Shown: in pieces, positions 8,211 to 24,841 of the stretch
Numbering within the stretch: the stretch's first letter is position 1
Layout: each line of letters begins with the position of its first letter
Notes under the pieces: generated by a model
Seen by the model: the letters and a program-made list of their open reading frames with translations, nothing else
Told to the model about the DNA's origin: nothing
The model's database searches: none
Position numbers and translations under genes: made by a program
From: Candidatus Latescibacterota bacterium
Lineage (GTDB): Bacteria > Latescibacterota > UBA2968 > UBA8231
Reading direction: 5' to 3'
Length of the DNA: 64,000 bases
Assembly (NCBI GenBank): GCA_965243025.1
Contig: CBDETY010000003.1
Location: forward strand, 5,344,001 to 5,408,000

Positions 8211-8342
8211 TTTCGGTGCTCCACCAGGTGTGGTGGCGATAATCTCTTCCGGCGGGGCGCCGCTGCCAAATCGTGCGGGCAGGCAGGAAGACGTGGCAGG
8301 GGAATGCAGGTGGCCCTGGATCGTCTGAATCCTCTGCGGCGG

Positions 8343-8714
8343 TCATCCCCGGGCAAGGAAATGAATAACGAACCCGACGATACCGCCTGCGGCACCGCTG
8401 AGGGTGAGAACCAGCCCGATAACCTTCCACATGGTTTCGACCCCCATCTTGCCGGTCAACCCGGTGGCAAGCGTCTTGATGTCCCCGGCCTGGCGATGCA
8501 AGTCATCCTGAACGGCGTGCATCAGCAGATCGACGGTTTCCTTGTCCGATTTCTTTTCGATCTCGTGCTCGATAATGGAAAGACGAGTCTGAACCTCGCG
8601 GCGGTAATCTTCGAGGATGCCGCGGAATTCGTTGCGCCAGGTGTCGAATGTGTGGGCGAGGAGGCGCTCCCCCTGCTCACAGTCGAGGTCCGTGGAGAAA
8701 TGTGGTTTTTCCAT
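8343..8714 (-). CDS. hypothetical protein, coiled-coil with C-terminal transmembrane helix
   Basis: 123 aa ORF with RBS-like GAAGGA; hydrophobic C-terminus WKVIGLVLTLSGAAGGIVGFVIHF. Confidence 0.65.
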   Translation of the reverse strand: MEKPHFSTDLDCEQGERLLAHTFDTWRNEFRGILEDYRREVQTRLSIIEHEIEKKSDKETVDLLMHAVQDDLHRQAGDIKTLATGLTGKMGVETMWKVIGLVLTLSGAAGGIVGFVIHFLARG

Positions 8715-8910
8715 CGAGATCCTTCGTTTGAGTGAAATCAGACATCCGGATTCGCCTGAACCCAGTTGGAGATTTCAAGGGGAGTATGGAGATCCTGTGG
8801 TCAGGCCAACCCAATGCTTCAGGGGGTACTTACCGGATCGGGGGATAGGGTGTCGGAGACGCGGCAAAAGGAAAAAAAGTCTCTTAGAAAGGACCTCCCC
8901 ACAAAAAAAA

Positions 8911-8936
8911 CCGACACTTTTTCCGGGGTTCCGGTT
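8911..8936 (+). promoter_or_regulatory. putative island-sigma promoter, copy 1 (CCGACA-N14-CCGGTT), upstream of A1
   Basis: Same bipartite motif and spacing at 14131, 15437 and 21738. Confidence 0.6.
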
Positions 8937-9037
8937 AGTAAACACTTGCATCAACAAAACCCCGGCCGAGCGGAGCGTAACAAAACAGTTGTGACATCCC
9001 GCGGCCACCACACCCATAATAGGGGAGAACTTGAACC

Positions 9038-10216
9038 ATGCGACTTCTGCATCGCCCGGCAAGTCTCAAGGGCCTGAACATTCAGAGCCTCAAAAACCAG
9101 GGATTCGACGCCTACCAGCACGGATTCAAGCCGGAGGACCAGAACAACCTGGCCGCCATCTGGAGCCGAGTCACCGGTGCCGTTTCCAGCTTTCAGGACG
9201 GGAACCAGATGGACATCTGGCTGGCCCTGACCCTGGAAGGGGACGACCGTGTGTTTCCTCCTCCCAATACACACGACTGGAAAGCCCTGCAGCTGGAGAC
9301 CTACCAGCGGGAATCCTGGTACAACAACCCGAACCACGCCTTCTACAGCGACATCAGGGACATCGTCAACTACATCCGGAACAGCAGCCGCGCCGGGTCC
9401 AGGCTGAAGGGCATCCGCTGGAATCACGAATACGGGCCGGTGGTCTGGAAGCTGGGCAGCGAGTGGACCGACTATGCCCAGGAACACGCGGCGTCGGACT
9501 ACAATGTCTGCATGAACCACCGGGCGACCGAATGGTGGAACTTCCGCAAGGCCATCGCGCCGAACACGGACGAGCCCGAAGATCGGCAACTGAAGGCAAA
9601 CGCCGCCTACAACAACCCGACGGCTCCGTGGAACGGGTGCGAATATGCCGAATGTCGCAGGCTGTACAGGAAGCTGGTCGACTTCCAGTGCGATGTTCAG
9701 GCCAGGATGGTCGGCCATGTATCCGATCTTCTGACCAACATCAGCTCCAGCTTGAAGCTCATCGTCTACCCGCCGGCCCAGGGGCCGACCGTCCACGGCA
9801 AGACGGAATACACCCTGGACATGAGCCTGAACGGCTTGACCGACAAGCCGAACATCATTTGGGAAATGGGTGACTGGGATTTCCGCGAAGAACCCTACGT
9901 CGCTCTCAGGGCCTGGGCCCGCCAGGCATCGAACGCGGGCGCTCCCTACTTCTTCACGCTTCAGCAGTCCATAGAGCGGTCAGGGTTCCAGGCCCGGCGG
10001 GATCGCATCGAGCAGCTTGTCGCCAACCGGTTCCTAAAGGACGAGGACGGCAACGACCTGGAGAACACCGAGGGCATCACCCGGCCGTGGGACGATTCCT
10101 TCGGGTTTTGGAGCAATTGGACCACGTCCCTGGGAAATGACGGGAATAACATCGATGCCACCCAGCAGGCGGGCTACGTCTCCGACCTCAGGAGTGCGCT
10201 CAACGAACACGGGTAG
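9038..10216 (+). CDS. uncharacterised protein family 'A', copy 1; putative (beta/alpha)8 glycoside-hydrolase-like fold
   Basis: 392 aa; paralog of 15551 and 21998 (GIRWNHE, RLY..VxFQ, P.QGP, WE, FWS.W); no evident signal peptide. Confidence 0.8.
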   Translation: MRLLHRPASLKGLNIQSLKNQGFDAYQHGFKPEDQNNLAAIWSRVTGAVSSFQDGNQMDIWLALTLEGDDRVFPPPNTHDWKALQLETYQRESWYNNPNHAFYSDIRDIVNYIRNSSRAGSRLKGIRWNHEYGPVVWKLGSEWTDYAQEHAASDYNVCMNHRATEWWNFRKAIAPNTDEPEDRQLKANAAYNNPTAPWNGCEYAECRRLYRKLVDFQCDVQARMVGHVSDLLTNISSSLKLIVYPPAQGPTVHGKTEYTLDMSLNGLTDKPNIIWEMGDWDFREEPYVALRAWARQASNAGAPYFFTLQQSIERSGFQARRDRIEQLVANRFLKDEDGNDLENTEGITRPWDDSFGFWSNWTTSLGNDGNNIDATQQAGYVSDLRSALNEHG

Positions 10217-10258
10217 CAGGCAGGCAGGAACCCGACAGGGAAGACAAGGCTGAACGAG

Positions 10259-10302
10259 GAAGGCCCCACCCCCCAGGCAGGAGGTGGGGCCTTCTGGTTT
10301 TT
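10259..10302. terminator. intrinsic terminator between convergent A1 and TolB-like 1
   Basis: GAAGGCCCCACC...GGTGGGGCCTTC 12-bp stem followed by TGGTTTTT. Confidence 0.75.
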
Positions 10303-10316
10303 GTCCCGCATAGGAG

Positions 10317-11339
10317 TCATTCCAGATTCTGGGTTTTGACCTGGCCCCAGGTCCGGCTTCTGACGGCGGCCGTCGGGGGATCCTGCGAGGTCGGCAAGAA
10401 CTTCACGGAGTAACTCCTGCTCGAGACCGGACTGCTGAAGTAAGCGATCTGGTCTCCGGCCGGGCTCCAACTGGGCCGGAGGCTCCATTGTCCATCGGAC
10501 GTCAGTTGCCGGATGTCCTGCAGGTCCGGCCCCTGGGCCTGAAAGATTTCGTAGACATACCCTTCGAGCTTCAGGGAGAACGCCAGCCGTTGGCCATCCG
10601 GGGACCAGGACGGGGCATAGATTCCGGACAGGTTGTCGCCGATCTCCCAAAACTCGCCCCCGAACCACTCATGGCCGAACCAATCCCAGACGTAGAGGCG
10701 CGTGCTTGGAACGAAACCGTCGTCGAGGCCGTAGTCCGGTTGTGTGTAGAAAAACGCCAACCGCCCGGACGCAGGCGACCAGCTGACGGTCTCAGGCTCG
10801 CAATCCGGCGTTGCACGATGCCGGCCGGTTTCGGGATCCACAACGCCGGCGTACCCGTGCTGAGCCGTCCGCATGCCCCACCCTTCGACAGTCAGGTACA
10901 GGATGCCGATGGACCACCAGGCAGTCACGTCATAATCCAGGTAACTCAGGGCAATCTCCTGGGTGTTCTGGCCGTCGACCGTCTGCAAGTAGACGACGGG
11001 AACGATTTCACCTTCCCGTATTTCACTTTGCCAGCGGGCAATGCGGTCTCCATCTGGAGACCAGTCCACGGCCCGTCCGTCTCCGACAGGCCGGCGGGGG
11101 CTGTTTTCCGCTGGTTCCTGAACGAAAACCTGCTCCATGTGGTGGAACAGGATCAGGTCCCCTGCGGGAGACCATTTCGGATGCTGCCCGGGCCCCAGGA
11201 TCGTTTCCTCATGGCTGTAGGCGTCCATTACTACCAACTGGCCGTCGATGTCGTGGACCAGTCGGTCGCCGGAAGGGGACCACGACAGGCTTTCCGCGCA
11301 GGCGGAAACAGCGGCCAGGACCAGAAAAGCAGTTATCAT
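10317..11339 (-). CDS. secreted TolB-like (PD40 repeat) beta-propeller 1 with WGxxK tail
   Basis: Signal peptide MITAFLVLAAVSACA, repeated WSP(D/A)G motifs, C-terminus PTAAVRSRTWGQVK. Confidence 0.85.
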   Translation of the reverse strand: MITAFLVLAAVSACAESLSWSPSGDRLVHDIDGQLVVMDAYSHEETILGPGQHPKWSPAGDLILFHHMEQVFVQEPAENSPRRPVGDGRAVDWSPDGDRIARWQSEIREGEIVPVVYLQTVDGQNTQEIALSYLDYDVTAWWSIGILYLTVEGWGMRTAQHGYAGVVDPETGRHRATPDCEPETVSWSPASGRLAFFYTQPDYGLDDGFVPSTRLYVWDWFGHEWFGGEFWEIGDNLSGIYAPSWSPDGQRLAFSLKLEGYVYEIFQAQGPDLQDIRQLTSDGQWSLRPSWSPAGDQIAYFSSPVSSRSYSVKFLPTSQDPPTAAVRSRTWGQVKTQNLE

Positions 11340-13444
11340 GAAGGCGACCCACCTCCGGGAGCTTCGGGCTTTCTTCGTTGACCGGCTTGCTTGGACACGG
11401 CTGCTGTTGCCGAATGCGGGCCAGGTGGTTTTGCCATGCGGTAGCCGACGCGATTCACAGTGAAGACAAACGTGGGATTGCGTGCATCGTCGCCCAGCTT
11501 CTGGCGAATGTCCTTTATATAGGCGCGTATGACCTGCGGATTTGTGGAGTGATCCGAACCCCAGACCCGTTCTCCCAATTGACGGTGGGTCAACACCCGC
11601 CCGGCTTTGATGGAAAGCTCGAGAAGCAGCCTGTATTCCGTCGGGGACAGCTGCACCGCATGGCCGGCCAGGGTCACGGAGCGTTCGTCGTAGTCGATCG
11701 TCAGGTCTCCCAGGCGAAAAGGTGAAGGGGTAACAGCTTGCGGGTATTGCGGGTCGTCGACTGCCTCAATGCGCGACCACTCTGTTCCGCTCTCACCTTG
11801 GTACGAGAGTGCGGACTGCCCGCCGCCTTCCTCGGCAACGGGAATGGTGAAGGTGATTCGCGTCCCCCCTTTGGGTACGTCGCTCTCCGCCCATATCCGG
11901 CCGCCGTGGGCTTCGACTATGCCCTTGCAGATCGCAAGATCCAGACCGCTGTTCCCTGCGTCTTCCTCCCCGTCCTCGCGATCCCTCCTGTAGAATTTCG
12001 TGAACAGGTTCTGCAGGTGCTCCGCAGATACACCCCTGCTTTCGTCTGCTACAGAGATCGCCACGTGGAAATCCGAAGCCCGCGCGGTCACCCTGATAGT
12101 GGACGTATCGGGCGAGTACCTCGAGGCGTTGGCAAAGAGTTTGTCCAGCACCTGGAGGATGCGAAGCTTGCCCGCCTGGATGCGGGGCAGGTTGGGCGGG
12201 AGGTCGAACTCGATGCTGTTCCCCGCCCCACCGCCCAGGAAGGTGCTTCTCGCGTGATCGACCAAGTCATTGAGGTCCGCCGGCTCGGGCGTTAACGACA
12301 GGGCCCCGGTCTCGAGGTGGGTCATGTCGAGAAGGTCGTTGATCAGGCCACGCAGAAGGTCCGCCTGACCGTCGATGATCTGAAAAAGCTGACGCGCCTC
12401 CTCAGGATCAGGGGGAGACGGGGCGTCCAGGGCCATGGCCGTCGAACCCTTGATGGCGGAAAGCGGCAGCCGCAGCTCGTGGCTCGCCTTGGAGAGTAAC
12501 TCGGAGCGCACCTTTTCCAACTCTCCCAGCGGCGTGATGTCCTGGATGACGGCAACAGCGGACAGGATCTGCCCGTCTTGCGAGTAAATCGGGGTGGCGT
12601 TTACGAGCGCGGTAACCGTCTCGCCGTCGGCATGATGGAAAACCAGCTGTTCGGCGCGCACGGTCGCTCCCTTGTCAAGCACCCGCTCCAGAGGGAGCTC
12701 ATCGGTCGCCACCGGATTTCCGGAAGGACGGCTGCAGGTCATCGCCTCGCGGTACTGATCCAGGGTAATGCCGGGCTCTGGAAGGACCCCCATGATCCGC
12801 TCCCCCTCGTAATTGACCGAGAGGACGGTCCGCGTCTCCGCGTCGACGACCAGCACCCCCACGGGCGAGGTGCTGATCAGCGCCTCCAGGTCCGCCCGGG
12901 CCCGATGTTCGCAGCTGTACCTGCGGGCGTTGGCGATGACGGCTGCCGCGTGCGACGCGAACAGTACGAGGATCTCTTCGTCCTCTGGAGTGAACTCCTG
13001 CCCGCCATCCTTCTCGGTCAGATAGAGGTTGCCGAAATTCTTTCCGAGATGCCGGATCGGAATCCCGAGGAAGGTATTCATCGGCGGGTGGTTTTCGGGA
13101 AAGCCGACCGATTCGGGATGCTCGCGGAGATTTGCCAGGCGCAACGGTTTCTGACTCCTGTTCACGTACCCGAGCAGCCCCCTCCCCCCCGGCCCCTCCT
13201 CCTTTATACGTTGACGTTCCTCGGGAGTGATGCCGGAGGTGACGAACTGCTGCAAATCCCTGGTGCCGTCGAAGACCGCAAGCGCGCAGTAACGGGCGTT
13301 GATCAGCAGCCGTGCGTTGTCTACAACCTCTTTCAGGATGGTAACGAGGTCGAGGCTCAGGGCGGTGCGGAGGCTGGCCTCGCTCAGCCGGGAGATCCGA
13401 GCTCCACGCATGTCGTTTCCTGTGCTCCAACTCGGTCCGGGCAT
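11336..13444 (-). CDS. GAF-PAS histidine kinase fused to an OmpR-type winged-helix DNA-binding domain, receiver domain largely deleted; start uncertain (13444 or 13411)
   Basis: GAF (GFPENHPPMNTFLGIPI), PAS, H-box SHELRLPLSAIKG, HATPase (GSGL-like and GGRIW), C-terminal LSPTEYRLL...RQKLGDD..NP...T..RVGYRM. Confidence 0.88.
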   Translation of the reverse strand: MPGPSWSTGNDMRGARISRLSEASLRTALSLDLVTILKEVVDNARLLINARYCALAVFDGTRDLQQFVTSGITPEERQRIKEEGPGGRGLLGYVNRSQKPLRLANLREHPESVGFPENHPPMNTFLGIPIRHLGKNFGNLYLTEKDGGQEFTPEDEEILVLFASHAAAVIANARRYSCEHRARADLEALISTSPVGVLVVDAETRTVLSVNYEGERIMGVLPEPGITLDQYREAMTCSRPSGNPVATDELPLERVLDKGATVRAEQLVFHHADGETVTALVNATPIYSQDGQILSAVAVIQDITPLGELEKVRSELLSKASHELRLPLSAIKGSTAMALDAPSPPDPEEARQLFQIIDGQADLLRGLINDLLDMTHLETGALSLTPEPADLNDLVDHARSTFLGGGAGNSIEFDLPPNLPRIQAGKLRILQVLDKLFANASRYSPDTSTIRVTARASDFHVAISVADESRGVSAEHLQNLFTKFYRRDREDGEEDAGNSGLDLAICKGIVEAHGGRIWAESDVPKGGTRITFTIPVAEEGGGQSALSYQGESGTEWSRIEAVDDPQYPQAVTPSPFRLGDLTIDYDERSVTLAGHAVQLSPTEYRLLLELSIKAGRVLTHRQLGERVWGSDHSTNPQVIRAYIKDIRQKLGDDARNPTFVFTVNRVGYRMAKPPGPHSATAAVSKQAGQRRKPEAPGGGSPS

Positions 13445-13786
13445 GGGTTTGCCCGTCCGTGTTTCGTGGATTTGCCGGTTGAGGATATATCCCACACTTC
13501 CGCATAGCTCATATAACGCGTAACAATTGGTGAGTGTCAAGAATACATTGCCAAGTTATCGCAAAACCCTGAATTAATGGAGATAGTAACGGATTTGAAT
13601 CTTACCTGGTCCGTACTGAGGGCCTATGATTTCACTATGTATCCCCTATATGTATGAGCATGTTTCACTATAGTCTCTGAAAGTCGCTGCTCCTGAAAAC
13701 AATCTTGAAAAACTCCATTTGAACTGACCTTAAGTCGGCCATAGGTTTTCATTTTTTCGAAAATGGGATCTATGGAGGAGGACGGA

Positions 13787-14125
13787 ATGACGGACGAGGT
13801 AACCAAGGCGGCCCTGACTCCTGCCAGGCGCCGCCTGGTGGAAATGATGCAGGAGATCAATTTCGGACGCATAGAAAGACTGGACGTACGGGAAGGGGAA
13901 CCGTTATTCGATCCACCGCCGATGGCGGTGCGTCAAATGGTGTTCGGGAAGAAAAACGGGCCGAACCAGATTCGGAGCCAGGACGGCTACGCACTTAAGA
14001 AGAAGGTGGCGGAATTGTTCGAGGTATTCGACCGGGAGCAGACGTTCCGGGTTCTGGAGCTCGTGATCGACGACGGGCTGCCCCTCCGCATGACCGTGGG
14101 GGAAGGCTCTACTGATTGTTGCTGA
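13787..14125 (+). CDS. small uncharacterised protein 'B', copy 1
   Basis: RBS GGAGGA; highly similar to 14228-14560 (LTPARRRLVEMMQEINFGRIE...KKVAELFEVFDREQTFRVLELVIDDG). Confidence 0.8.
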   Translation: MTDEVTKAALTPARRRLVEMMQEINFGRIERLDVREGEPLFDPPPMAVRQMVFGKKNGPNQIRSQDGYALKKKVAELFEVFDREQTFRVLELVIDDGLPLRMTVGEGSTDCC

Positions 14126-14130
14126 AAAGG

Positions 14131-14156
14131 CCGACACTTTTTCCGATTTGCCGGTA
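14131..14156 (+). promoter_or_regulatory. putative island-sigma promoter, copy 2 (CCGACA-N14-CCGGTA), upstream of B2-sigma
   Basis: Motif shared with the upstream regions of the three A genes. Confidence 0.6.
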
Positions 14157-14227
14157 TGGAACGGTAGCTGAACCGGGATCAAGGAAACCATGGAATTGCA
14201 CGGCGTGACCCCGACGGATCACAAGGC

Positions 14228-14560
14228 ATGACGGATGGTATAACCAGGGCGGCCCTGACTCCTGCCAGGCGCCGCCTGGTCGAAATGATGCAGGAGATCA
14301 ACTTCGGGCGCATCGAAGGGCTCGAAGTACGCTACGGGGAGCCGGTGCTGGATCCACCGCCAAAGGCCGCCCGCCAGATGGTATTCGGCAGGAGGAACGG
14401 GACGAACGCGGGGGACGCCAACCATGGAATTACACTCAATAAGAAAGTGGCGGAATTGTTCGAGGTCTTCGACCGGGAGCAGACGTTCCGGGTCCTGGAG
14501 CTCGTGATTGACGATGGCATGCCCGTCCGCATGACCGTGGCGGACGGGGATCGGACCTGA
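14228..14560 (+). CDS. small uncharacterised protein 'B', copy 2
   Basis: 110 aa tandem paralog of B1. Confidence 0.8.
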   Translation: MTDGITRAALTPARRRLVEMMQEINFGRIEGLEVRYGEPVLDPPPKAARQMVFGRRNGTNAGDANHGITLNKKVAELFEVFDREQTFRVLELVIDDGMPVRMTVADGDRT

Positions 14561-14593
14561 ATCCGGGCCCCAGACAATAGACACGGTATCACA

Positions 14594-14677
14594 CCAGACA
14601 ACCGGCTGGCCGCAGAAGCGGAGGTCGTTGTGGGTGTCGCCAAACCGGCGCCTCACAAGGCTTCCGCTTCTTTGTTT
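14594..14677 (+). promoter_or_regulatory. structured leader/attenuator-like RNA upstream of the sigma gene, copy 1
   Basis: CCAG/CTGG hairpin, then a long stem GAAGCGGAGG..TTGTG..CGCC/GGCG..CACAA..CTTCCGCTTC followed by TTTGTTT. Confidence 0.5.
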
Positions 14678-14741
14678 GAGGCGGCCTTGCCGGTCCAGGT
14701 CGACCCCTGCGCCCGCTTCTGCCCGGCCCGGAGGAGGCGCA

Positions 14742-15332
14742 ATGAGTTTCGACGCCAGGCAAGGCGGCATCGACCGCTATGCCGTTCAGCACATCCGGTT
14801 CAAGGCCCGGCAGCTGGCCGGGCAGGCAGGTTTCGCGGCCAGCGAGCGCAAGGACCTGGAACAGGAGCTGTTCCTGGACCTGTTGACCCGGCTTCCCCAG
14901 TAGGACCCCGAGCGCGGGCGGCGCACCACCTTCATCTCCCGGGTGGTGGCCAACCGGGTTTCCACCCTGATCGAGTCACAGAAGGCGGGTTTGCGGGATT
15001 ACCGTCTCCGCGGCGGTTCGTTGAACGAATGCCTGGAGGACGAGGAAGGGGGTACGGTGGAGCGGCTGGACACCCTGGATGGGGAGGACCACCTGCTGCG
15101 CACCGGGGCGGTGTCGCGGCCGTGGGAGGAGCGGCAGGCCCTGGCCATCGACCTGGCGGCGTTGATGGAAACCCTTCCGCCGGAGTGGGCAATGCTGTGC
15201 CGTCGTTTGCGAGTGGAGACGGTCTCGGAGATTTCCCGGGATACGGGGATTGCGCGGGGGACAATTTACGAGTGGATGGGGAAGCTGCGGCAGATCTTCG
15301 AGGAGGCGGGCCTGAGGGAGTACCTCGATTAG
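14742..15332 (+). pseudogene. sigma-70/ECF-like sigma factor, nonsense-disrupted
   Basis: Colinear with 21044-21634 but TAC (Tyr) is TAG at 14901-14903. Confidence 0.85.
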
Positions 15333-15436
15333 GTACCGAAGTTCGGGCTTCCCGATATAGGAAAGGGGAAAGGTGGTTCGGGGGGCTCAAGTGGGTCGTG
15401 GGCTTCGAGATGGTCCGGGGAAAGAGGAAAGGAGTC

Positions 15437-15462
15437 CCGACACTTTGCTTGTGGTTCCGGTA
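15437..15462 (+). promoter_or_regulatory. putative island-sigma promoter, copy 3, upstream of A2
   Basis: CCGACA-CTTTGCTTGTGGTT-CCGGTA. Confidence 0.6.
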
Positions 15463-15550
15463 AGAAACAAGCGCATACGTAAACAGCGGCAGGGGGGCAC
15501 AAACCTGTTGTGTCGCCCCTTTTCCGAGACACCTCCCAAGGAGGAAAAGA

Positions 15551-16630
15551 ATGAAAGCGCTTTACGGACGAGGAATACTAGTGGACCTGGAAGTTCGGGA
15601 CGCCAGTGAGTACGGCTTCGACACCTTTCAGTTGAATCAAATTCATTCGGGCACGGATATCGATGACATAATCGGCGAGGAGGTGGGAAATATCGATGGT
15701 TGGTTCAATGCTGGAGGTCCTTACAACCTCATTCTCCCCATCCAGTTCTGGGGCGATCCATACGCCTGTCCCAATTACACCAGTGCAAGTGCCGCAAGCG
15801 GTCAAGTAAACATAATTGACCGGGAGGAATGGTACGATAACACCGCCCATGCTTTTTACACGGATCTGAAAATCCGTATCGAAGAGGTGGAAGAATTGGT
15901 TGGATGTCGATTGGTGGGGATACGGTGGAATCATGAAATCGCGCCCAATCTGTTCAAAGAAGGACCGAGGTGGCATGATCACGCTTTGGAAAATCATGAA
16001 ACGGAATACAATTCAGTGTATGAAAACAGTAATGGGGAGGAACTGTGGGAGCAGTGGCGAGAGGCCGTTCCTTCGATTGGATCCAAAAACGCTTATGACG
16101 GGACAAATCTTCCCCAGATTTGGGCACAGTTCCACCCCGAAGTGCCAAGGCTTTACCGCCGGTTTGTGGATTACCAGGTGAATTTACAGAAGACAATGAT
16201 CGAAATCCTGCGTAGCAAGATCGCCAGTGTAAACAGCGATCTGAAATTCATTGTCTATACGCCGCAGCAAGGACCCAACTCGGTCTATGCGAAAGAGGAG
16301 TATACCCTGGACCTGGATGGAGTAGGAAGTCCGGCCAACCCGGTTTGGGAAATCTCTGCCTGGGACTCAGGTTCCCAAGCGGGAAATAAAAGTCTAATCG
16401 ACAATTGGGCAGGACAGGCAGGAGGCAACGATTACTACTTCGTAATGCAGCAGGGGAGCAGCCTTTCGACTGAAAGTGTGGTATCTTACATCGAAAACCT
16501 CCAGAACCCTGGAGTAACCAATCAGCCAGATCACTTTGCTTTCTGGTCAAAATGGAGGAGATTACAAGATCCGGATGCACTATCCGAGCAGAGACAGTAC
16601 ATGAACAAGGTCAAGGAGGCCTTGGGGTAA
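15551..16630 (+). CDS. uncharacterised protein family 'A', copy 2 (most divergent)
   Basis: RBS AAGGAGG; GIRWNHE, RLYRRFVDYQ, IVYTPQQGP, KEEYTLD, WE and FWSKW shared with A1/A3. Confidence 0.8.
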   Translation: MKALYGRGILVDLEVRDASEYGFDTFQLNQIHSGTDIDDIIGEEVGNIDGWFNAGGPYNLILPIQFWGDPYACPNYTSASAASGQVNIIDREEWYDNTAHAFYTDLKIRIEEVEELVGCRLVGIRWNHEIAPNLFKEGPRWHDHALENHETEYNSVYENSNGEELWEQWREAVPSIGSKNAYDGTNLPQIWAQFHPEVPRLYRRFVDYQVNLQKTMIEILRSKIASVNSDLKFIVYTPQQGPNSVYAKEEYTLDLDGVGSPANPVWEISAWDSGSQAGNKSLIDNWAGQAGGNDYYFVMQQGSSLSTESVVSYIENLQNPGVTNQPDHFAFWSKWRRLQDPDALSEQRQYMNKVKEALG

Positions 16631-16808
16631 CGGGTTTGCGGCACCCTATCAACCCCCCACACCACTTCAACCTTCGGAGCCGCTTGGGAGACCCATAGCC
16701 CAGGCAGTTGTAAAAAAATGAACTTGCGGAAGGTAAGAAAAGGATAGGTTGCTGATGCTTTTGTGGATGGATTTCGTCACATGGATCCTGACCAGGAGAT
16801 GACCGGCG

Positions 16809-17756
16809 GTGGAACCAGGAACAGTCTTCACACCAGACAACAATCACGGAAACAAATTGCACATCGCGTCGATCGCCATTGTCCTGTGCCTGGTTCCAGG
16901 GCTGGTCATCGGTAATCCTGAAAAAACGGTGGATCTGCCTTCCGGCAGTTCCATGAGGTTTGTGCGCATTGAGGCGGGTTCCTTTCTGATGGGGACCGCG
17001 GAGAACCGCCAAGAAGAGATTGGTAAGTACGCCGGCAATTATCGCGAATTCCCCCAGCACCGAGTCACCCTCACCAAGGGGTTTTACCTGGGGAAATACG
17101 AGGTCACCCGGGAGCAGTGGGTGGCGGTGATGGGAACAGAGCCTGAAGAGTGGAAAAACTTTCCCGCTTCGTGGAGAGGATCCCAGAGACCTGCTACGAC
17201 AATTTCCTGGTTGCAGGTTCAGGAGTTCATGGGCTTTCTAAGTGAATTCTCCGGTAGGACGTTTCGGTTGCCCACCGAGGCGGAGTGGGAATACGCGGCA
17301 CGAGGGGGAACGGAGACGCTCTGGGTATCGGGAGACGACCAGTCCGAGGCATGGAAACACATGTGTAGACGCACCCTTCGATGCGATGTCGGAAGCGACC
17401 CTTTGTTCGGTAACCCCTGGGGGTTGTTCGACATGCAGGGGAACGTGTGGGAGTTAGTGTTCGATGGCCACTTCAGGGAGTATGCTGAAGAAGTTGTGGA
17501 CCCGGTCGGACCTTCTGCCCGGTTGGAAGGCTTGGCAATTACCCGAGGGGGGGACTCTGGTAACGTAGGAACTGATGATCAACCAGAGTATGTTGTCATT
17601 TATCACTCCCGACCTGCATTCCGTGGTTTATGGGGCATTGATCGGGAAGGTGGTTCCTGGGTCGGCTTTCGCGTCTTGTTAGAGCTCGAAGAAGACCCCA
17701 CGTCCGTTGAAATTCAGGGGTGGGGTGCCATGAAAGAGTCACAGCTTTCGAAATAG
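16809..17756 (+). CDS. formylglycine-generating enzyme (SUMF1/FGE-sulfatase) domain protein with WGxxK tail
   Basis: GSFLMG, E.PQH.V, GKYEVT, RLPTEAEWEYAARGG, NPWGLFDM.GNVWE and GFRV; hydrophobic N-terminal segment; tail PTSVEIQGWGAMK. Confidence 0.9.
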   Translation: MEPGTVFTPDNNHGNKLHIASIAIVLCLVPGLVIGNPEKTVDLPSGSSMRFVRIEAGSFLMGTAENRQEEIGKYAGNYREFPQHRVTLTKGFYLGKYEVTREQWVAVMGTEPEEWKNFPASWRGSQRPATTISWLQVQEFMGFLSEFSGRTFRLPTEAEWEYAARGGTETLWVSGDDQSEAWKHMCRRTLRCDVGSDPLFGNPWGLFDMQGNVWELVFDGHFREYAEEVVDPVGPSARLEGLAITRGGDSGNVGTDDQPEYVVIYHSRPAFRGLWGIDREGGSWVGFRVLLELEEDPTSVEIQGWGAMKESQLSK

Positions 17757-17783
17757 TCCTGCCGAAATACCCCAGATAGATTT

Positions 17784-17890
17784 ACACCAGACAACCGGCT
17801 GGTCGGGGAAAGCTGTTCCTGGACCTGTTGACCCGGCTTCCCAGTACGACCCGGAGGGCGGGCGGCGCACCACCATCATCTCCCGGGTGG
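17784..17890 (+). pseudogene. internally deleted remnant of a third leader-sigma cassette
   Basis: ACACCAGACAACCGGCTGG (leader) joined to AGCTGTTCCTGGACCTGTTGACCCGGCTTCCCAGTACGACCC...TCCCGGGTGG (sigma interior). Confidence 0.85.
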
Positions 17891-17944
17891 GTTGAAAAAG
17901 GTTCGCAAAATCCAAGAGTTGGCAACGCCTTTCGGGGGACAGAA

Positions 17945-19051
17945 TCATGGCTGTATGTACAACGGTAAGGCCTTCTTGGTTTCACCCCAACTCCGGGGTT
18001 CGACTCGGGTGGGATGAGAAGAAAGACCAGAAACGTCAATCACAATTAAACGGGGACCGCGAAAAAAGGCGATCTTGTCTCCCCGGGGGCTCCACTCGGG
18101 AACCCGTTCCTGTTCTTCAGAATGGGTTATTCGGGTCAGCCCCGTTCCATCCGATCCAACGATGAATATCTCTTGATTGTTCCTTTCCATCCTTCCCGCA
18201 AAAACCAGGCGCCGGCCATCAGGAGACCATGAAGGGAACGAGACAGATTCCATGTCGGTTACTTTCGCTGTACTGGCATGGTACTCCCAACTACGGCGAT
18301 CCAGCGAAAGATCTATCATGTGAATCCCAACATCCAAGCCCAGGTGACTCAACCGGTATTTTGGATCCGATTCTTTGCCGGGCACGGGAAATGCCAATTT
18401 TTCAGATGCTGGCGACCATACGCCTCTATACTGCAATGGGGTGCCAGGATTGAACTTTATCTCCGGGTTCCCTACCCTCGAATCGACGTGCGATTTTTTT
18501 TTCAGATCGATAAGGTGTTCTGAAGTTCCCTCCGGGATAAGGTTCCAGACTTCATACGCAATACCCATGGGCCACCAGGCGTATATGTCGAGCGGCTCAA
18601 TGAAAGGGCCCCATACTTCGAAAGCTTCCCTCGGATTGTCTCCATTGGAATCTGCCAGGTGAACAACCATCGCATCCAATTTATGGCCCCTGTCGTTTAC
18701 CTGTTTTCTCGTCGAGAAGGCAAAGCGAGTGCCGTCGGGTGACCACAGAGGAGTTTGTCCTGTGGCCACCGGGAGGGGGTCCGAGCCGTCAGCGTTGACA
18801 AGGAAGATCCTTCCTGAGAGAACGAACAAGATCTGATCGCTGGTTGGAGACCATTTCGGCGCCCATCCAACGCCGATCTCGATGCTTTGTAAGGCATCCA
18901 CATCGACAACGGTGAGGTTGAAATTGAGCGAGTGAACCAGCCTGTCCCCTTTGGGCGACCACGATATCGATTGACCTTGGGCCGCGGAGTTGAAAGCGAA
19001 CAGGAAGACCAGGAAGGTGTTTCGGAGGGGTCCCAACTTCCGTTTTTCCAT
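17945..19051 (-). CDS. secreted TolB-like beta-propeller 2 with WGxxK tail
   Basis: Signal-peptide-like MEKRKLGPLRNTFLVFLFAFNSAAQG, WSP repeats, tail PTRVEPRSWGETK. Confidence 0.83.
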   Translation of the reverse strand: MEKRKLGPLRNTFLVFLFAFNSAAQGQSISWSPKGDRLVHSLNFNLTVVDVDALQSIEIGVGWAPKWSPTSDQILFVLSGRIFLVNADGSDPLPVATGQTPLWSPDGTRFAFSTRKQVNDRGHKLDAMVVHLADSNGDNPREAFEVWGPFIEPLDIYAWWPMGIAYEVWNLIPEGTSEHLIDLKKKSHVDSRVGNPEIKFNPGTPLQYRGVWSPASEKLAFPVPGKESDPKYRLSHLGLDVGIHMIDLSLDRRSWEYHASTAKVTDMESVSFPSWSPDGRRLVFAGRMERNNQEIFIVGSDGTGLTRITHSEEQERVPEWSPRGDKIAFFRGPRLIVIDVSGLSSHPTRVEPRSWGETKKALPLYIQP

Positions 19052-19205
19052 GCTCAAGCCAATTCTCAAATCTGAGGTTACCCCGGCCGGAATTCCGGGG
19101 GATATGGGCCCTTTGATTTCGGCATGGTTGGACATCCTCCTTTTCTCTTCTTCAAGAAATGAAGTGTCCACGAAATCGGGTCAACTCCTGTCTAAATTCC
19201 CTGGA

Positions 19206-19252
19206 GAAAGCAGAAAGGCCGTCCGCTCCGCCCGGATGGCCTTTCTGCTTTC
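19206..19252 (-). terminator. long hairpin/terminator between TolB-like 3 and TolB-like 2
   Basis: GAAAGCAGAAAGGCCGTCCG / CGGATGGCCTTTCTGCTTTC, ~20-bp stem. Confidence 0.65.
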
Positions 19253-19268
19253 CCACCATCAGAGCCGG

Positions 19269-20351
19269 TCAACGAGGCTGATTTTTGAGAGTGCCCCATC
19301 CGGTGGACTCGACTCCGGACGCAATAAGAGGGTCTACGTCTATCCACTCCACAGACCCGGTACAGGAGTCGCAGTAGTAGGCGATCTTGTTTCCAGTCGG
19401 ACTCCAACTGGGCTGGGAATCCCAGCCGGGCCGGGCTGTCAGGCGCGTCAGGCCCGAGCCGTCTGCGCCGACAATGGATATCTTCCGGGCATCGTCTTCT
19501 TCTATCCAGTGATTGATAGCCAAGTACCTGCCATCGGGAGACCAGGCAGGTCTGAAAAGGCCGGTCAAGTCGGTAACCTTGAAAACGTCGCCTTGGCGAA
19601 TCCTGTTATCCATCTGCTCGAAACTCCCCGAACCATCTACTACATAGGTGCCGTTTTCAAGCAGGGGCGTAGGTCCAGGAAATTCCTTTGCAAAATCTTC
19701 ATCTGCAAAAAAGGCCAACTTGCCCGAGGCCCCCGACCAACTTGCCGTATATGGTACCCACCCACGATTTCCTGTTTCCGGATCAAACACTTCTGAATTG
19801 TATTCATGGAACTCTATATTTCCCCAAAAATGTCTGAAATTGATACCTATGGACCACCAGGCGCTGATACCTGATACCCCTTCGCAAAGCAGGGAATGCT
19901 CCTGCCGGTTTCCTCCATCCTCATCCTGGATAACTACCACGAACTCAGGTTGGTAGCCGGTGTCGTAGCATCTTGCCTGTCGTATGAAGGAAAAGGCAAG
20001 GCGTCTGCCATCAGGAGACCAATGGGGGGACCCACCTGTTTCTGCTATCAGGCGGCGGTCCGTGCCGTCTGCATTGATGACAAACACAGGCCCCGGAGGC
20101 TCAGGCCAGGAATCGACGACGACGAACAGAATCCGATCGCCTGCCGGAGACCAATTCGGACCAGATCCCCTGCCGAGAGAAAGGGATTGACGGGTGTGGA
20201 CGTCAACGACCGTGAGTTCCTGTTCTTCCGGGAGCGAATAAACCAACCGGTCTCCTTGGGGAGACCATGAGATTGGTGTATTGGCTGCAAGCGGACAGAG
20301 GAGGACGATGACGATCAGTGTGCAGGAAACGATTTGGACAATCATTATCAT
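19269..20351 (-). CDS. secreted TolB-like beta-propeller 3 with WGxxK tail
   Basis: Signal peptide MIMIVQIVSCTLIVIVLLCPLAA, WSP repeats, tail SGVESTGWGTLK. Confidence 0.83.
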   Translation of the reverse strand: MIMIVQIVSCTLIVIVLLCPLAANTPISWSPQGDRLVYSLPEEQELTVVDVHTRQSLSLGRGSGPNWSPAGDRILFVVVDSWPEPPGPVFVINADGTDRRLIAETGGSPHWSPDGRRLAFSFIRQARCYDTGYQPEFVVVIQDEDGGNRQEHSLLCEGVSGISAWWSIGINFRHFWGNIEFHEYNSEVFDPETGNRGWVPYTASWSGASGKLAFFADEDFAKEFPGPTPLLENGTYVVDGSGSFEQMDNRIRQGDVFKVTDLTGLFRPAWSPDGRYLAINHWIEEDDARKISIVGADGSGLTRLTARPGWDSQPSWSPTGNKIAYYCDSCTGSVEWIDVDPLIASGVESTGWGTLKNQPR

Positions 20352-20515
20352 CCTGTTTCGGTCTGTTATAAAAAAGAATGAAAAAAAACCAACTCCTTGT
20401 AAGGGAGGTAAACTACCGAGTGGCCTCCGTAATATCATACTTTTGGACCGTCACAGGCAACGCCCTTTACTGACCGCCCGAACCGCCGCTATCATTATCC
20501 GCCATGCCCCCGACC

Positions 20516-20736
20516 ATGGACGCGAACAGGATCTGCGAGCTGCACGTACACATCGGCGGCTGTTTTACGCCGAGGATCTGATCCGCTTCGGCCGCGGCGT
20601 TTTCGAACAGGTCGACTGGACCAGCTTCTGCGACAGGTACGAGCACGCCTACGGCGAGGGGCCCGACGTTGCCCGACTGTATCGGAACGCCCTGTCGGGG
20701 TCCCCCGGCGGCGCCGACGGCTTCTGCCGCCACTTC
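20516..20736 (+). pseudogene. duplicated 5' fragment of the adenosine-deaminase-like gene (frameshifted)
   Basis: Matches 24849-25069 with scattered substitutions and T4 instead of T5. Confidence 0.88.
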
Positions 20737-20745
20737 TGCAAGAAT

Positions 20746-20862
20746 AAAGTGGCGGAATTGTTCGAAGTCTTCGACCGGGAGCAGACGTTCCGGGTTCTGG
20801 AGCTCGTGATTGACGATGGCATGCCCGTCCGCATGACCGTGGCGGACGGGGAACGGACCTGA
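20746..20862 (+). pseudogene. 3' fragment of protein 'B' (copy 3)
   Basis: KVAELFEVFDREQTFRVLELVIDDGMPVRMTVADGERT, almost identical to the B2 C-terminus. Confidence 0.85.
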
Positions 20863-20895
20863 ATCCGGCCCCCAGGCAATAGACACGGTCTCACA

Positions 20896-20979
20896 CCAGA
20901 CAACCGGCTGGCCGCAGAAGCGGAGGTCGTTGTGGGTGTCGCCGAACCGGCGCCTCACAAGGCTTCCGCTTCTTTGTTT
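20896..20979 (+). promoter_or_regulatory. structured leader upstream of the sigma gene, copy 2
   Basis: Same hairpins as 14594-14677; the only change seen is in the apical loop (CAAACC vs CGAACC). Confidence 0.5.
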
Positions 20980-21043
20980 GAGGCGGCCTTGCCGGTCCAG
21001 GTCGACCCCTGCGCCCGCTTCTGCCCGGCCCGGAGGAGGCGCA

Positions 21044-21634
21044 ATGAGTTTGGACGCCTGGCAAGGCGGCATCGACCGCTATGCCGTTCAGCACATCCGG
21101 TTCAAGGCCCGGCAGCTGGCCGGGCAGGCAGGTTTCGGGGTCAGCGAGCGCAAGGACCTGGAACAGGAGCTGTTCCTGGACCTGTTGACCCGGCTTCCCC
21201 AGTACGACCCCGAGCGCGGGCGGCGCACCACCTTCATCTCCCGGGTGGTGGCCAACCGGGTTTCCACCCTGATCGAGTCACAGAAGGCGGGTTTGCGGGA
21301 TTACCGTCTCCGCGGCGGTTCGTTGAACGAGTGCCTGGAGGACGATGAAGGGCGTACGGTGGAGCGGCTGGACAGCCTGGATGGGGAGGACCACCTGCTG
21401 CGCACCGGGGCGGTGTCGCGGCCGTGGGAGGAGCGGCAGGCCCTGGCCATCGATCTGGCGGCGCTGATGGAAACCCTTCCGCCGGAGTGGCGCATGCTGT
21501 GCCGCCGTTTGAGAGTGGAGACGGTCTCGGAGATTTCCCGGGATACGGGGATTGCGCGGGGGACAATTTACGAGTGGATGGGGAAGCTGCGGCAGGTCTT
21601 TGAGGAGGCGGGCCTGAGGGAGTACCTCGATTAG
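21044..21634 (+). CDS. sigma-70 family (ECF-like, regions 2 and 4) RNA polymerase sigma factor, intact
   Basis: RBS GGAGGAGG; region-2-like DLEQELFLDLL.RLPQYDPERG..TTFISRVV and a region-4 HTH TVSEISRDTGIARGTIY. Confidence 0.82.
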   Translation: MSLDAWQGGIDRYAVQHIRFKARQLAGQAGFGVSERKDLEQELFLDLLTRLPQYDPERGRRTTFISRVVANRVSTLIESQKAGLRDYRLRGGSLNECLEDDEGRTVERLDSLDGEDHLLRTGAVSRPWEERQALAIDLAALMETLPPEWRMLCRRLRVETVSEISRDTGIARGTIYEWMGKLRQVFEEAGLREYLD

Positions 21635-21737
21635 GTGGTACCGAAGTTCGGGCTTCTATAGGAAGGGTGGGCTACATGGCGCGTGGACTCCAGTGGGTCG
21701 TCGATTCGAGATAGGTCGGGAAAAGAGGGAAGGAATT

Positions 21738-21763
21738 CCGACACAATGCTTGAGGTTCCGGTA
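21738..21763 (+). promoter_or_regulatory. putative island-sigma promoter, copy 4, upstream of A3
   Basis: CCGACA-CAATGCTTGAGGTT-CCGGTA. Confidence 0.6.
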
Positions 21764-21997
21764 AGAAACAAGTGCATCCAACAAAATCACGACTAGGCAG
21801 CCAAGTAAAAAAATGCTGCGGGTCTCGTTTACTGGCCAACACGAAAGGAGAGGATGATCCAATTGGGAATTATATACCAAAGTCATCAGAGGAAAATATA
21901 TATATATGAAATGAATACACACTAAACGATGCATTGAGGCAGGTTGTTTTTTTTTCCGATCCCAACGTAGCACACAACTCGAAAAAGGAACAAAAAA

Positions 21998-23179
21998 ATG
22001 AGACTTCTCCACCGACCCGGAAGCATGAAGAACCTGGGTATAGCCTCCCTGCGGGATCAGGGATTTGACACATTCCAGTCCGGGGCCAAACCCGACGAGG
22101 CCGGGGGTGTGGATGACATCTGGACCAGAATGCAAAACGAGGTTTCCGCCTTCGATGACGAGGACCCTCTGGACATCTACTGGGCCCTCAACCTCGAAGG
22201 AGACTCCCATGTGTTTCCCAACGGGTACACTTGGAAGGGGATGCAGTTGGAGACGTACGACAGAAACGGGTTTTATGATTCTCCCAGCCACCAGTTCTAC
22301 TCCGACGTCCGCACGATCGTTACCGACCTGAGAGACTCCTCTCGGGCCGGGACCCGACTGAAGGGAATACGGTGGAATCACGAATACCGTCCCGTGGTGT
22401 GGAAACTCGGCACCGATTGGGCCACGTACGCCATGGAGCACAACCCGGAAGATTTCCAGACTGTAGCCGTGCACCGAGCAACCGAATGGGAATATTATCG
22501 CAGGGCTTGCGCTCCCTACACCAACGTGATCGATGACCACAAGCTGGGCAGCAAAGACGCCTACGACGGGCCGGACTGGGCGCCATGGAACGGTTCCAAC
22601 TACGTCGCGGTCAAAAGGCTCTACAAGGATCTGGTTCATTTTCAGGCCAATTGTCAGGCAAAGATGATCGGGCACATAGCCACCATCCTCGGTACTATCG
22701 ACTCGAGTCTCAGGCTGATCGTCTTTCCGCCGGCGCAAGGACCTTCCGATTGGGGCTTGAAGGAGAATACTCTGGACCTGACCCGGAACAGCCTCGCTGC
22801 CAGAACAAACATCAAATGGGAGTTCACCGACCAAGACGGCCTCGGCGACGGACATATCGTCAACTACAAGGCATGGGCAAGACAGGCCATGGACGCTCAT
22901 GACCACGTCGAGTATTTCTTCACCCTGAAGCAGCTGATCAGTGCGGACGATTTCCAGCAACGGCTCGACAGGGTGGAGAAGCACGTGGCCAACTGCTTCT
23001 TCAAAGACGAAGACGGGAATGCTCTTCCAGGCACAAGTGATCTGGACAGACCCTGGAACGAGAGCTTCGGATTCTGGAGCCGGTGGCTCTCTTCTAACGC
23101 TGGCAACCCCAACATTTCCGTGGCCCAGCAGACGGAATATGCTCAGGAACTGAGAGACGCGCTGAACGAGCACGGCTAG
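21998..23179 (+). CDS. uncharacterised protein family 'A', copy 3
   Basis: 393 aa, colinear with A1 from MRLLHRP to ALNEHG. Confidence 0.82.
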   Translation: MRLLHRPGSMKNLGIASLRDQGFDTFQSGAKPDEAGGVDDIWTRMQNEVSAFDDEDPLDIYWALNLEGDSHVFPNGYTWKGMQLETYDRNGFYDSPSHQFYSDVRTIVTDLRDSSRAGTRLKGIRWNHEYRPVVWKLGTDWATYAMEHNPEDFQTVAVHRATEWEYYRRACAPYTNVIDDHKLGSKDAYDGPDWAPWNGSNYVAVKRLYKDLVHFQANCQAKMIGHIATILGTIDSSLRLIVFPPAQGPSDWGLKENTLDLTRNSLAARTNIKWEFTDQDGLGDGHIVNYKAWARQAMDAHDHVEYFFTLKQLISADDFQQRLDRVEKHVANCFFKDEDGNALPGTSDLDRPWNESFGFWSRWLSSNAGNPNISVAQQTEYAQELRDALNEHG

Positions 23180-23204
23180 CAGGTTCCGTTTCTTATGGGG
23201 AACG

Positions 23205-23245
23205 AAAAGGGGGTGGCTGTGTCCCCAGCCACTCCCGTTTTTATT
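23205..23245. terminator. bidirectional-type terminator between A3 and TolB-like 4
   Basis: AAAA-GGGGGTGGCTG...CAGCCACTCCC-GTTTTTATT. Confidence 0.7.
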
Positions 23246-23257
23246 CAGATTGCTTTT

Positions 23258-24322
23258 TCATTCCATGGGCAAAGCCAGCGACTTCTTGATTTCGCCCCAG
23301 CTGCTTGGCCTGATTCCGGTGGGCGTATCTACCTGCACGAACTTCAGGATACGACGCAGCGCCTGCCGGTCTGTCTGGCTGAAGTAGGCGATCTGATCGC
23401 CGGCAGGGCTCCAGTAGACTCCGACCTTATGTTGCGAATCGAACGTCAGGTGCCTGATCTGCTGAAGCGAATCACCTGAAGCAACGAGGATCTGTCCCTC
23501 GAGACTGAATGCCAGCCGTTGGCCGTCGGGAGACCAGGAAGAATTGGTATATCCCAGGTTTTGACCGATTTCCCACGGTGTCCCGCGCAGCTCCTTTACG
23601 AAGAGTCCGTGGGGGGGGACCCAATCGTCAGGCATCCCGAGCTCGGCATTCGAGAAAGCGTAGGTTTGTGTCCTGAAGTGATAGGCCAATCGTGAAGTGG
23701 CTGCCGACCAGCTCATGCTTCCGGGGCTGCATTCTGCTCCATCCACCACTCGCCGGTACGGATCCGGATCCGAATCCGGATCCAGAATCCTCGTGGATTT
23801 GTGCTCGGATGCACGTATCGCCCATCCATCCACGGATTGGTAGACGATTCCCAGCGACCACCAGTCGGTCACGTCGTAATCGAGGCGGTCCAGGACGACT
23901 TTCTTGTGGAGTTCTCCTTCGAGGTTTTCTATGAAGATCACCGGGGCGGGTTCTTCGTATTCCGAGTTTCTAACGGGCAGAAGCTGGGATTGCCAGTAGG
24001 CATAGCGGTCTCCGGACGGGGACCATCCCACCGCCTTGCCCTCCCCGATTCGTCGACGCCCCGAACCGCCCGCCTGCACGATGAACGTCTCCCACGTCAG
24101 TGTATTCCCCGTCCTGCTCTTGAGGGTGAACAAGATCTGGTCTCCGACCGGCGACCACGTCGGATCAGACCCGGGTCCGATGGAAGTGACCTGATGGCTG
24201 TAGGCGTCCACCACGAACAGCTCTTCTTCATCCACATATACCAGGCGATCTCCTTGCGGAGACCACGAAAGTTTTTCTGCCGAAACAGAAGTCGCGGCAA
24301 TGACTAGCAGAACAGTAATCAT
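23258..24322 (-). CDS. secreted TolB-like beta-propeller 4 with WGxxK tail
   Basis: Signal peptide MITVLLVIAATSVSA, WSP repeats, tail PTGIRPSSWGEIK; closest to TolB-like 1. Confidence 0.85.
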   Translation of the reverse strand: MITVLLVIAATSVSAEKLSWSPQGDRLVYVDEEELFVVDAYSHQVTSIGPGSDPTWSPVGDQILFTLKSRTGNTLTWETFIVQAGGSGRRRIGEGKAVGWSPSGDRYAYWQSQLLPVRNSEYEEPAPVIFIENLEGELHKKVVLDRLDYDVTDWWSLGIVYQSVDGWAIRASEHKSTRILDPDSDPDPYRRVVDGAECSPGSMSWSAATSRLAYHFRTQTYAFSNAELGMPDDWVPPHGLFVKELRGTPWEIGQNLGYTNSSWSPDGQRLAFSLEGQILVASGDSLQQIRHLTFDSQHKVGVYWSPAGDQIAYFSQTDRQALRRILKFVQVDTPTGIRPSSWGEIKKSLALPME

Positions 24323-24324
24323 TT

Positions 24325-24826: not shown

Positions 24827-24841
24827 AAGGTTTAAAGGACC

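Follow-up and report, generated by a model that had tools for sequence, protein, structure and literature searches.

A bipartite motif in a Latescibacterota gene island is probably the promoter of an ECF-type sigma factor from a prophage module

We analyzed a stretch of 64,000 nucleotides (the window) from the genome of a Candidatus Latescibacterota bacterium (assembly GCA_965243025.1, contig CBDETY010000003.1, positions 5,344,001 to 5,408,000). The window is about 69% G+C overall and 53-61% G+C from roughly 8 to 26 kb, and it is in this part that we find an island of paralogous genes (Table 1). These include A1, A2, and A3; two copies of a gene for a sigma factor of the extracytoplasmic function (ECF) type; several members of a family of small proteins that we call B; and U123, which encodes 123 amino acids (aa). 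A two-box motif stands in front of five units: U123, A1, the B2-sigma1 operon, A2, and A3. From sequence comparisons, we think it likely that this motif is the cognate promoter of the island's sigma factor and that B, sigma, and promoter form a prophage module that has become wired to these five units.

A pattern search of the window for CCGACA-N14-CCGGTW returned the four plus-strand sites that the initial annotation had listed, with the hexamers and the exact spacing of 14 nucleotides (nt) that it described. It also returned a fifth site, on the minus strand, so the annotation's statement that all copies lie on the plus strand is right for its four and incomplete as a description of the island. 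None of 100 dinucleotide-preserving shuffles contained any match (mean 0.00). In all five copies, the first box extends to 7 nt, CCGACAC; the minus-strand copy reads CCGACAC-N13-CCGGTA and then AGTA. If the five copies are aligned along with 80 nt on either side, the invariant columns concentrate in CCGACAC and CCGGT, and the flanks are dissimilar, except for the copies at 15437 and 21738, which sit within one duplication with a 6.3-kb spacing (repeat families D1 and D11). From the last base of the motif to the start codon there are 116 nt for U123, 101 nt for A1, 71 nt for B2, 88 nt for A2, and 234 nt for A3, in agreement with the annotated range of 70-235 nt. The copies linked to A genes extend as AG(T/A)AACA...(T/C)GCAT, as had also been noticed, and a comparable run is found in the ortholog from G103, a genome of the same genus. 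The U123 and A1 copies are divergent and stand back to back, with 54 nt between them.

The motif is concentrated in the island. CCGACAC-N13-CCGGT has 9 matches in the 6.8-Mb genome, of which 5 lie in a 13-kb stretch of the island, and the reversed control has 0. The other 4 matches have G+C-rich spacers and lie inside long open reading frames (ORFs). Our estimate from base composition is that about 3-4 matches are expected by chance genome-wide, and these 4 are near that level.

Table 1. Motif copies, genes, and other features of the island, in positions of the window.
Feature	Position	Strand	Description
U123	8343..8714	-	123 aa, C-terminal hydrophobic transmembrane-like stretch; no family assigned
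motif copy	8831..8856	-	putative U123 promoter; syntenic copies before U123 homologs in G103, G106, and G107
motif copy	8911..8936	+	putative A1 promoter
A1	9038..10216	+	392 aa, glycoside-hydrolase-like (beta/alpha)8 barrel (predicted), invariant RWNHE
terminator-like hairpin and T run	10278..10296	+	after A1
PD40 propeller gene	10317..11339	-	
sensor protein	11336..13540	-	734 aa; GAF, PAS, HisKA, HATPase_c, and OmpR-type Trans_reg_C
B1	13763..14125	+	orphan B-family copy, 120 aa; stop codon 5 nt before the 14131 motif
motif copy	14131..14156	+	putative promoter of the B2-sigma1 operon; syntenic copy in G103
B2	14228..14560	+	110 aa, putative conserved phage partner of sigma
sigma1	14742..15332	+	ECF-type sigma copy, in-frame TAG at 14901-14903
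motif copy	15437..15462	+	putative A2 promoter, perhaps also for the FGE-like gene behind A2
A2	15551..16630	+	359 aa, A1 paralog (32% identity)
FGE-sulfatase-like gene	16809..17756	+	downstream of A2
sigma relic	17784..17890	+	fragment of a third gene copy; repeat families D6, D12, and D13
PD40 gene	17945..19171	-	
PD40 gene	19269..20438	-	
chimeric ORF	20281..20862	+	adenosine-deaminase-like 5' duplicate fused to the C-terminal part of B (B3 relic); repeat families D2, D3, and D16
sigma2	21044..21634	+	intact ECF-type sigma, 196 aa; ORF start possibly as early as 20930
motif copy	21738..21763	+	putative A3 promoter
A3	21998..23179	+	393 aa, A1 paralog (54% identity)
terminator-like hairpin and T run	23209..23236	+	after A3
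PD40 gene	23258..24322	-	

The link between motif and sigma extends beyond the host phylum. Clusters homologous to the sigma number 46 at E <= 1e-5, and scans found 218 relatives in metagenomes and 186 in IMG/VR. From each of these two sets we analyzed the best 80 loci (38-60% identity in the metagenome set) for the exact pattern CCGAC[AG]-N14-CCGGTA, with the reversed pattern as the control. The initial annotation proposed looking for the motif near homologous sigma genes, and that is where it is. There are 71 exact motifs in 64 of the 80 metagenome loci, of which 69 share the strand of sigma, and 62 exact motifs in 52 of the 80 viral loci, of which 61 do so; the control gave 0 matches in both sets. 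The position is also conserved: in 60 of the 80 metagenome loci, the motif is -37 to +15 nt from the stop codon of sigma, most commonly at +5, and most of the remaining metagenome loci have a version with one mismatch at the same place. Since most loci have the motif beginning just a few nt behind the stop codon of sigma, it might act as RNA, either as a leader structure or as the terminator of the sigma gene. We find this hardly credible. RNAalifold assigned -0.98 kcal/mol to 88 distinct sites, with 3 predicted pairs that involve invariant bases only and 0 compensatory changes; Rfam had 0 matches within 8000-25000 of the window; and many copies of the motif are not behind a sigma gene.

Across 75 distinct sites, positions that we did not select for are conserved as well (G28 in 95%, T29 in 93%, and A30 in 92%). 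The sites are also T-rich at positions 8-10 and have yT at 19-20, which gives a full consensus of CCGAC(A/G)-yTTy-N8-yT-CCGGTA-N-GTA(a). This can be rewritten as CCGAC-N16-CGGTA, in which the first box resembles a -35 element and the second a -10 element, at a spacing of the ECF type. The motif's conservation declines with the similarity of the sigma. For this comparison, 157 of the 160 loci were usable. Those with a sigma of at least 55% identity have the exact motif at the stop codon in 36 of 42 cases; the figure is 59 of 71 for 45-55% identity and 14 of 44 for less than 45%. One divergent clade of sigmas (38-43% identity; L161, L162, L164, L166, and others) has CCGTCA...CCGGGTAAGTA just after the stop codon. 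It is possible that these variant boxes reflect co-evolution of the sigma and its promoter.

Two other observations concern sigma-54. We rejected the idea that the motif is a sigma-54 promoter (-24/-12): those have GG and GC doublets that are 10 nt apart (TGGCAC-N5-TTGCW), as opposed to boxes CCGAC and CCGGTA at 14-16 nt. Also, in a subgroup of the metagenome loci (L080 at 3189, L084 at 222, and L087 at 3152), a second copy of the motif lies 11 nt before a gene of about 95 aa that is upstream of B and sigma. Still further upstream, L080 and L087 encode a protein of 820-836 aa that has a Sigma54_activat AAA+ domain.

The loci from metagenomes and viruses also show what the sigma travels with. 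Homologs of B are directly upstream of the sigma gene in 66 of the 80 loci from metagenomes and in 74 of the 80 from viruses (140 of 160 in all), and U123, A, and PD40 genes are found in 0 of the 160. In the longer loci, a LexA-like or IrrE-like repressor and two genes without an assigned family lie upstream of B and sigma. Downstream of sigma are genes for a conserved protein of about 105 aa that we call YRY, a PD-(D/E)XK nuclease, an AAA_24/Sak4-like protein, a D5-type primase, ERCC4, and ParB-like proteins. B therefore looks like the conserved phage partner of the sigma, judging by gene neighborhoods. Its predicted fold is confident (a predicted local distance difference test score, or pLDDT, of 81), and we could not recognize any structural relatives (the best hit was at E = 0.64 with Foldseek and at Z = 3.1 with VIA-align). 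Searches with family models did not detect a helix-turn-helix (HTH) family in B, nor an anti-sigma family in either B or U123. The atlas matches of B and U123 are clusters without names, about half of which are viral.

In proviruses, the motif is repeated. Five whole provirus records from IMG/VR have 5 (G168), 7 (G170), 4, 3, and 2 exact copies, and within each record all copies are on one strand. In G170, the first copy precedes an operon of integrase, recombinase, B, and sigma; the second precedes an operon of YRY, exonuclease, Sak4, single-stranded DNA-binding protein, ERCC4, helicase, and primase; the third precedes an 84-aa gene without a family match; the fourth precedes an operon that ends in the large terminase; the fifth precedes portal and head-morphogenesis genes; the sixth precedes genes for a methyltransferase and the major head protein; and the seventh precedes an operon that extends into the gene for the tail sheath. 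As far as gene content can tell, this is the layout that one would expect of a phage sigma's regulon. Residence in phages is a property of the family, given the integrase, terminase, portal, major head, and tail sheath genes of G170, and not of the island: there are no integrase, phage structural, or replication genes among the island's own genes or the flanking genes, and the latter are housekeeping genes.

Among the findings that the initial annotation named as undermining the promoter idea is evidence that the motif is a relic of a recombination site. The island is rich in segmental duplications, and two of the copies share a duplicated block, so it is natural to ask if the motif is just repeated DNA, an attachment (att) site, or a transposon end. 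For the other copies, however, the boxes alone are conserved and the spacers and flanks differ; the same boxes occur with variable spacers in hundreds of unrelated contigs; and in the proviruses the copies are internal and ahead of operons instead of at the ends of the element. Because of this placement and because just the boxes are conserved across unrelated contigs, we reject this explanation, which seems to us extremely improbable.

Within the host phylum, we scanned 168 genomes for the extended motif CCGACR-N14-CCGGTA-N-GTA and found 18 matches in 8 genomes, as compared to 4 matches with the pattern reversed. Strong hits to the sigma occur in 5 genomes, all of which carry the extended motif (14 matches). 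G010 is the sixth genome above the threshold for sigma, but its hit is weak and partial (1e-22), and it does not contain the motif. In G103, copies of the motif stand ahead of U123, B2, and A, in positions syntenic to those of the window. Two genomes from another genus, G106 and G107, have the variant GCCGACG-N13-CCGGTA(A/T)GTA before their A genes, directly after a relic of the 3' end of sigma, and before U123; the order in G106 is sigma, motif, U123. G037, which belongs to another family of the phylum, has 5 co-oriented copies, one of which is 10 nt after sigma, and the order there is B, sigma, motif, and the YRY gene. In G102 there are 10 matches to A, some of which span the full length, and we found neither a sigma at E <= 1e-8 nor the motif near its A genes, which carry TTGACT-N17-TACGTT instead. 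G104 is also without the sigma and without a cluster of motifs.

Might the motif be read by some other alternative sigma that the host encodes outside of the island? Other alternative sigmas are presumably encoded in these genomes, and the geometry of the boxes is generic for ECF promoters. On the other hand, the motif tracks this sigma family across phyla and viruses, the genomes that lack the sigma (G102 and G104) lack the motif cluster too, and elsewhere in the genome the motif is at background level, in G+C-rich sequence within long open frames. A host sigma is very unlikely because the motif follows this family of sigmas.

The sigma itself is recognizable as such. Sigma2 matches Sigma70_r2 from Pfam at 26.3 bits (the cutoff is 24), and so do 30 of 30 members of the family (E <= 0.01). 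The best match of the family profile in the PDB is the ECF sigma RpoE (2q1z; E = 1.2e-6), with both the sigma2 and sigma4 domains aligned. Residues 130-180 of the profile align to sigma4 of RpoE and SigE with 13.7-20 bits, and other HTH families match region 4 weakly. With 196 aa and without Pfam hits for regions 1 and 3, sigma2 has the small size of an ECF sigma. We describe it as a divergent ECF-type sigma, on the evidence of these alignments, because its region 4 is atypical and because it misses the threshold of a curated family (TIGR02937, discussed below). Group 4 ECF sigmas (RpoE/SigE) consist of sigma2 and sigma4 domains, recognize a bipartite promoter with a spacing of about 16 nt, and have a copy of the promoter before their own operon. 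The island's sigma shares with group 4 (PDB 2q1z) a probable two-domain architecture, the spacing of the boxes, and a putative promoter before an operon that contains sigma. It differs in that the boxes are not the same, no anti-sigma was recognized, the family is mainly on proviruses, and it falls below the TIGR02937 cutoff.

We can now be more specific about how the island might work. RNA polymerase core with the island's sigma would bind the two boxes through the sigma4 and sigma2 domains, and transcription would begin a few bases past CCGGTA, in or just after the conserved GTA. B, sigma, and the promoter would together be an ancient module for transcription in prophages. Proviruses carry its putative promoter right at the stop codon of sigma, and additional co-oriented copies head the lytic operons there. 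In this genome, the regulatory module alone would have survived, without structural, replication, or integrase genes of a phage, and it would now be wired to A1, A2, and A3, to U123 (which is divergent from A1), and to B2-sigma1. The central proposal of the initial annotation, in which the island's own sigma reads the motif as its promoter, is supported by the co-inheritance of the two across distant lineages, by the strict orientation, by the placement of multiple copies before operons, and by co-variation.

Several observations count against our interpretation. First, the boxes CCGAC and CCGGTA are not the usual ECF promoter words, which are AAC and CGT. Second, the sigma's credentials are imperfect: it scores 38.5 bits against TIGR02937 (from the curated set of NCBIfam), where the cutoff is 42.9, and Sigma70_r4_2 matches just 4 of 30 members of the family, the window's protein not among them. 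Third, the copies before B2, A2, and A3 deviate from the conserved GTA (they have GGA, GAA, and GAA). Fourth, there is no motif ahead of sigma2, which is the intact copy, and the assembly has sigma1 interrupted by a stop codon. Fifth, three genomes without the sigma hold 4 good matches to the extended motif, and the relatives in the phylum are not independent, so that the test within the phylum rests on about three lineages. Finally, the association is genomic, and B accompanies the motif with roughly the same frequency as sigma. Because B co-occurs in this way, genomics alone cannot tell which protein of the module contacts the DNA.

The sites without a sigma are in the window's own family: L197 (G098), L198 (G105), and L199 (G154). 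The site in G105 has a U123-type leader and adjoins an FGE-like gene. These sites look like orphan promoters; another possibility is that a sigma gene is missing from the assemblies.

The last of the objections amounts to an alternative: B, or another regulator from the phage, might bind the motif and activate a promoter for a host sigma, with the island's sigma as a mere neighbor. B, which has no recognized fold or family, adjoins the sigma gene in the great majority of foreign loci and hence tracks the motif equally well. Yet the site has the form of a promoter rather than that of a dimeric operator, because it is an asymmetric pair of boxes separated by 16 nt and keeps strictly to the strand of the genes behind it (69 of the 71 metagenome copies and 61 of the 62 viral ones). 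Also, no HTH family was detected in B, and sigma-70-like promoters in the island are not above shuffles (5 versus a mean of 5.0, which makes the count uninformative about sigma-70-type promoters as such). So this alternative seems unlikely to us, and we infer that the sigma itself reads the motif.

The initial annotation also proposed that the copy at 14131 creates a positive feedback loop. The motif does precede B2 and sigma1, in the window and in G103. What does not fit is that sigma1 has an in-frame TAG and that sigma2 has no motif upstream, so feedback in this genome is uncertain. For the family it is plausible, because in the G170 provirus the motif is ahead of the operon of integrase, B, and sigma. 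A genome search found just the two copies of sigma, both in the island. Both sigma2 and the relic of a third copy have TAC where sigma1 has TAG, and sigma1 is not frameshifted. Short-read contigs over 14600-15500 neither confirm nor refute the TAG because they carry the letters of sigma2 there: all 12 discordant letters are those of the paralog, only sigma2 letters are seen at sigma1, and the depth is about twice that of the unique flank. The TAG may be an assembly artifact, a strain variant, or real. The ratio of nonsynonymous to synonymous substitution rates (dN/dS) relative to G103 is 0.28-0.40 for the sigma copies, 0.33 for B2, and 0.22 for U123, so sigma, B2, and U123 evolve under purifying selection relative to G103. 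Between sigma1 and sigma2, dN/dS is 0.48.

Phage-encoded sigmas that have their own promoters are already known as a kind, and such promoters have been mapped in phiEco32-like phages. A close parallel is Salmonella phage 7-11. PMC8948821 describes 8 mapped promoters of its sigma, SaPh711_gp47, with the bipartite form GTAAtg-(16)-aCTA; as in our proposal, a phage sigma directs the host's RNA polymerase to promoters with two boxes, spaced by 16 nt, before clusters of genes. However, phage 7-11 is a virulent, phiEco32-like phage whose promoters were mapped by experiment (same source), whereas here we have proviruses (one with an integrase and a tail sheath) and the consensus CCGAC-N16-CGGTA, which is known from sequence alone. 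In phiEco32 itself, the phage sigma, gp36, works with a small cofactor, gp79, that stimulates its transcription (PMC12276001 and PMC8948821), and this pair might be a model, by analogy, for the conserved pair of B and sigma. The promoters of gp36 have a single element (tAATGTAtA), unlike the two boxes here (PMC12276001 and PMC8948821). The only annotated phage records that match the island's sigma are 7 from Wolbachia phage WO, at 23-29% identity; one is annotated as "RNA polymerase sigma factor" and one as "sigma-70 domain protein". Their relationship to the island's sigma is very distant.

Our search of the literature found no paper on the motif or on this sigma family, a result that is provisional in that most subscription journals and the supplements on ECF classification lay outside of it. 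What appears to be new is the module's prophage origin, its wide distribution, the extended consensus, B as the partner of sigma, and the survival of the module in an island without a phage. The pair of sigma and promoter is sharply specified (about 15 informative bases) and widespread, with hundreds of members of the sigma family on proviruses of several phyla. This suggests that a large group of temperate phages may run their lytic genes, including the sigma's own operon, from one phage sigma, and the motif gives a simple rule for annotating operons in such phages. In the island, the motif would account for the co-regulation of paralogous genes that are otherwise opaque, and the island would be a clean example of a phage regulatory module that outlasts its phage. 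Also, with its long and rare promoter word and its small partner B, the module is a candidate for an orthogonal expression switch.

We also considered a more speculative idea, which we regard as rather doubtful: that the island is a domesticated phage switch, i.e., that the host kept the prophage circuit and wired it to a lineage-specific gene set, the A proteins and U123, as a response that senses phages. If the promoters are of the phage type, then the sigma expressed by an incoming or induced phage of this family would fire them too, and the island could act in this way. Abortive infection or remodeling of the cell envelope are examples of what it might then do, as opposed to being an ordinary stress regulon.

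The structural model of A is confident (pLDDT 83 and a predicted template modeling score of 0.86) and is a (beta/alpha)8 barrel. The closest folds are beta-amylases of glycoside hydrolase (GH) family 14 (E around 4e-6; template modeling scores of 0.47-0.53), followed by GH5, GH35, and GH164, so A1-A3 are, according to the model, glycoside-hydrolase-like. The invariant RWNHE of A contains an Asn-Glu pair that may correspond to the acid/base motif of clan GH-A. A is a rare family, with just 7 clusters in a set of 5.8 billion proteins. This genome accounts for 3 of the clusters, and within the phylum the family is in 5 of the 168 genomes, all from one bacterial family. In G103, an A3-like gene (L026, 13096-13602 and 15066-15743) is split by about 1.46 kb of inserted DNA. 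U123 is found only in this bacterial family, beside sigma. It has a weak match to XhlA (score 0.88), which we view as a lead only.

The sensor protein, in which we did not detect a receiver domain, is conserved beside A genes in G103 and G106, and it could be the input that controls the island. The four paralogous PD40/TolB-like beta-propeller genes are each convergent with or adjoining an A gene; homologs are present in the A islands of relatives and absent from all phage loci. FGE genes adjoin A genes in G106 and G107 as well. Strong terminator-like hairpins lie behind A1 and A3, and this placement is suggestive, although the overall count of terminators is not above shuffles. The chimeric ORF stands just upstream of sigma2. 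Its source is the adenosine-deaminase-like gene at 24842-26197, the 5' part of which is duplicated (20517-20736 versus 24849-25069, 95-98% identity). Finally, the 234-nt leader of A3 contains an A+T-rich stretch (21850-21960) with an (AT)5 run, unlike the rest of the island.

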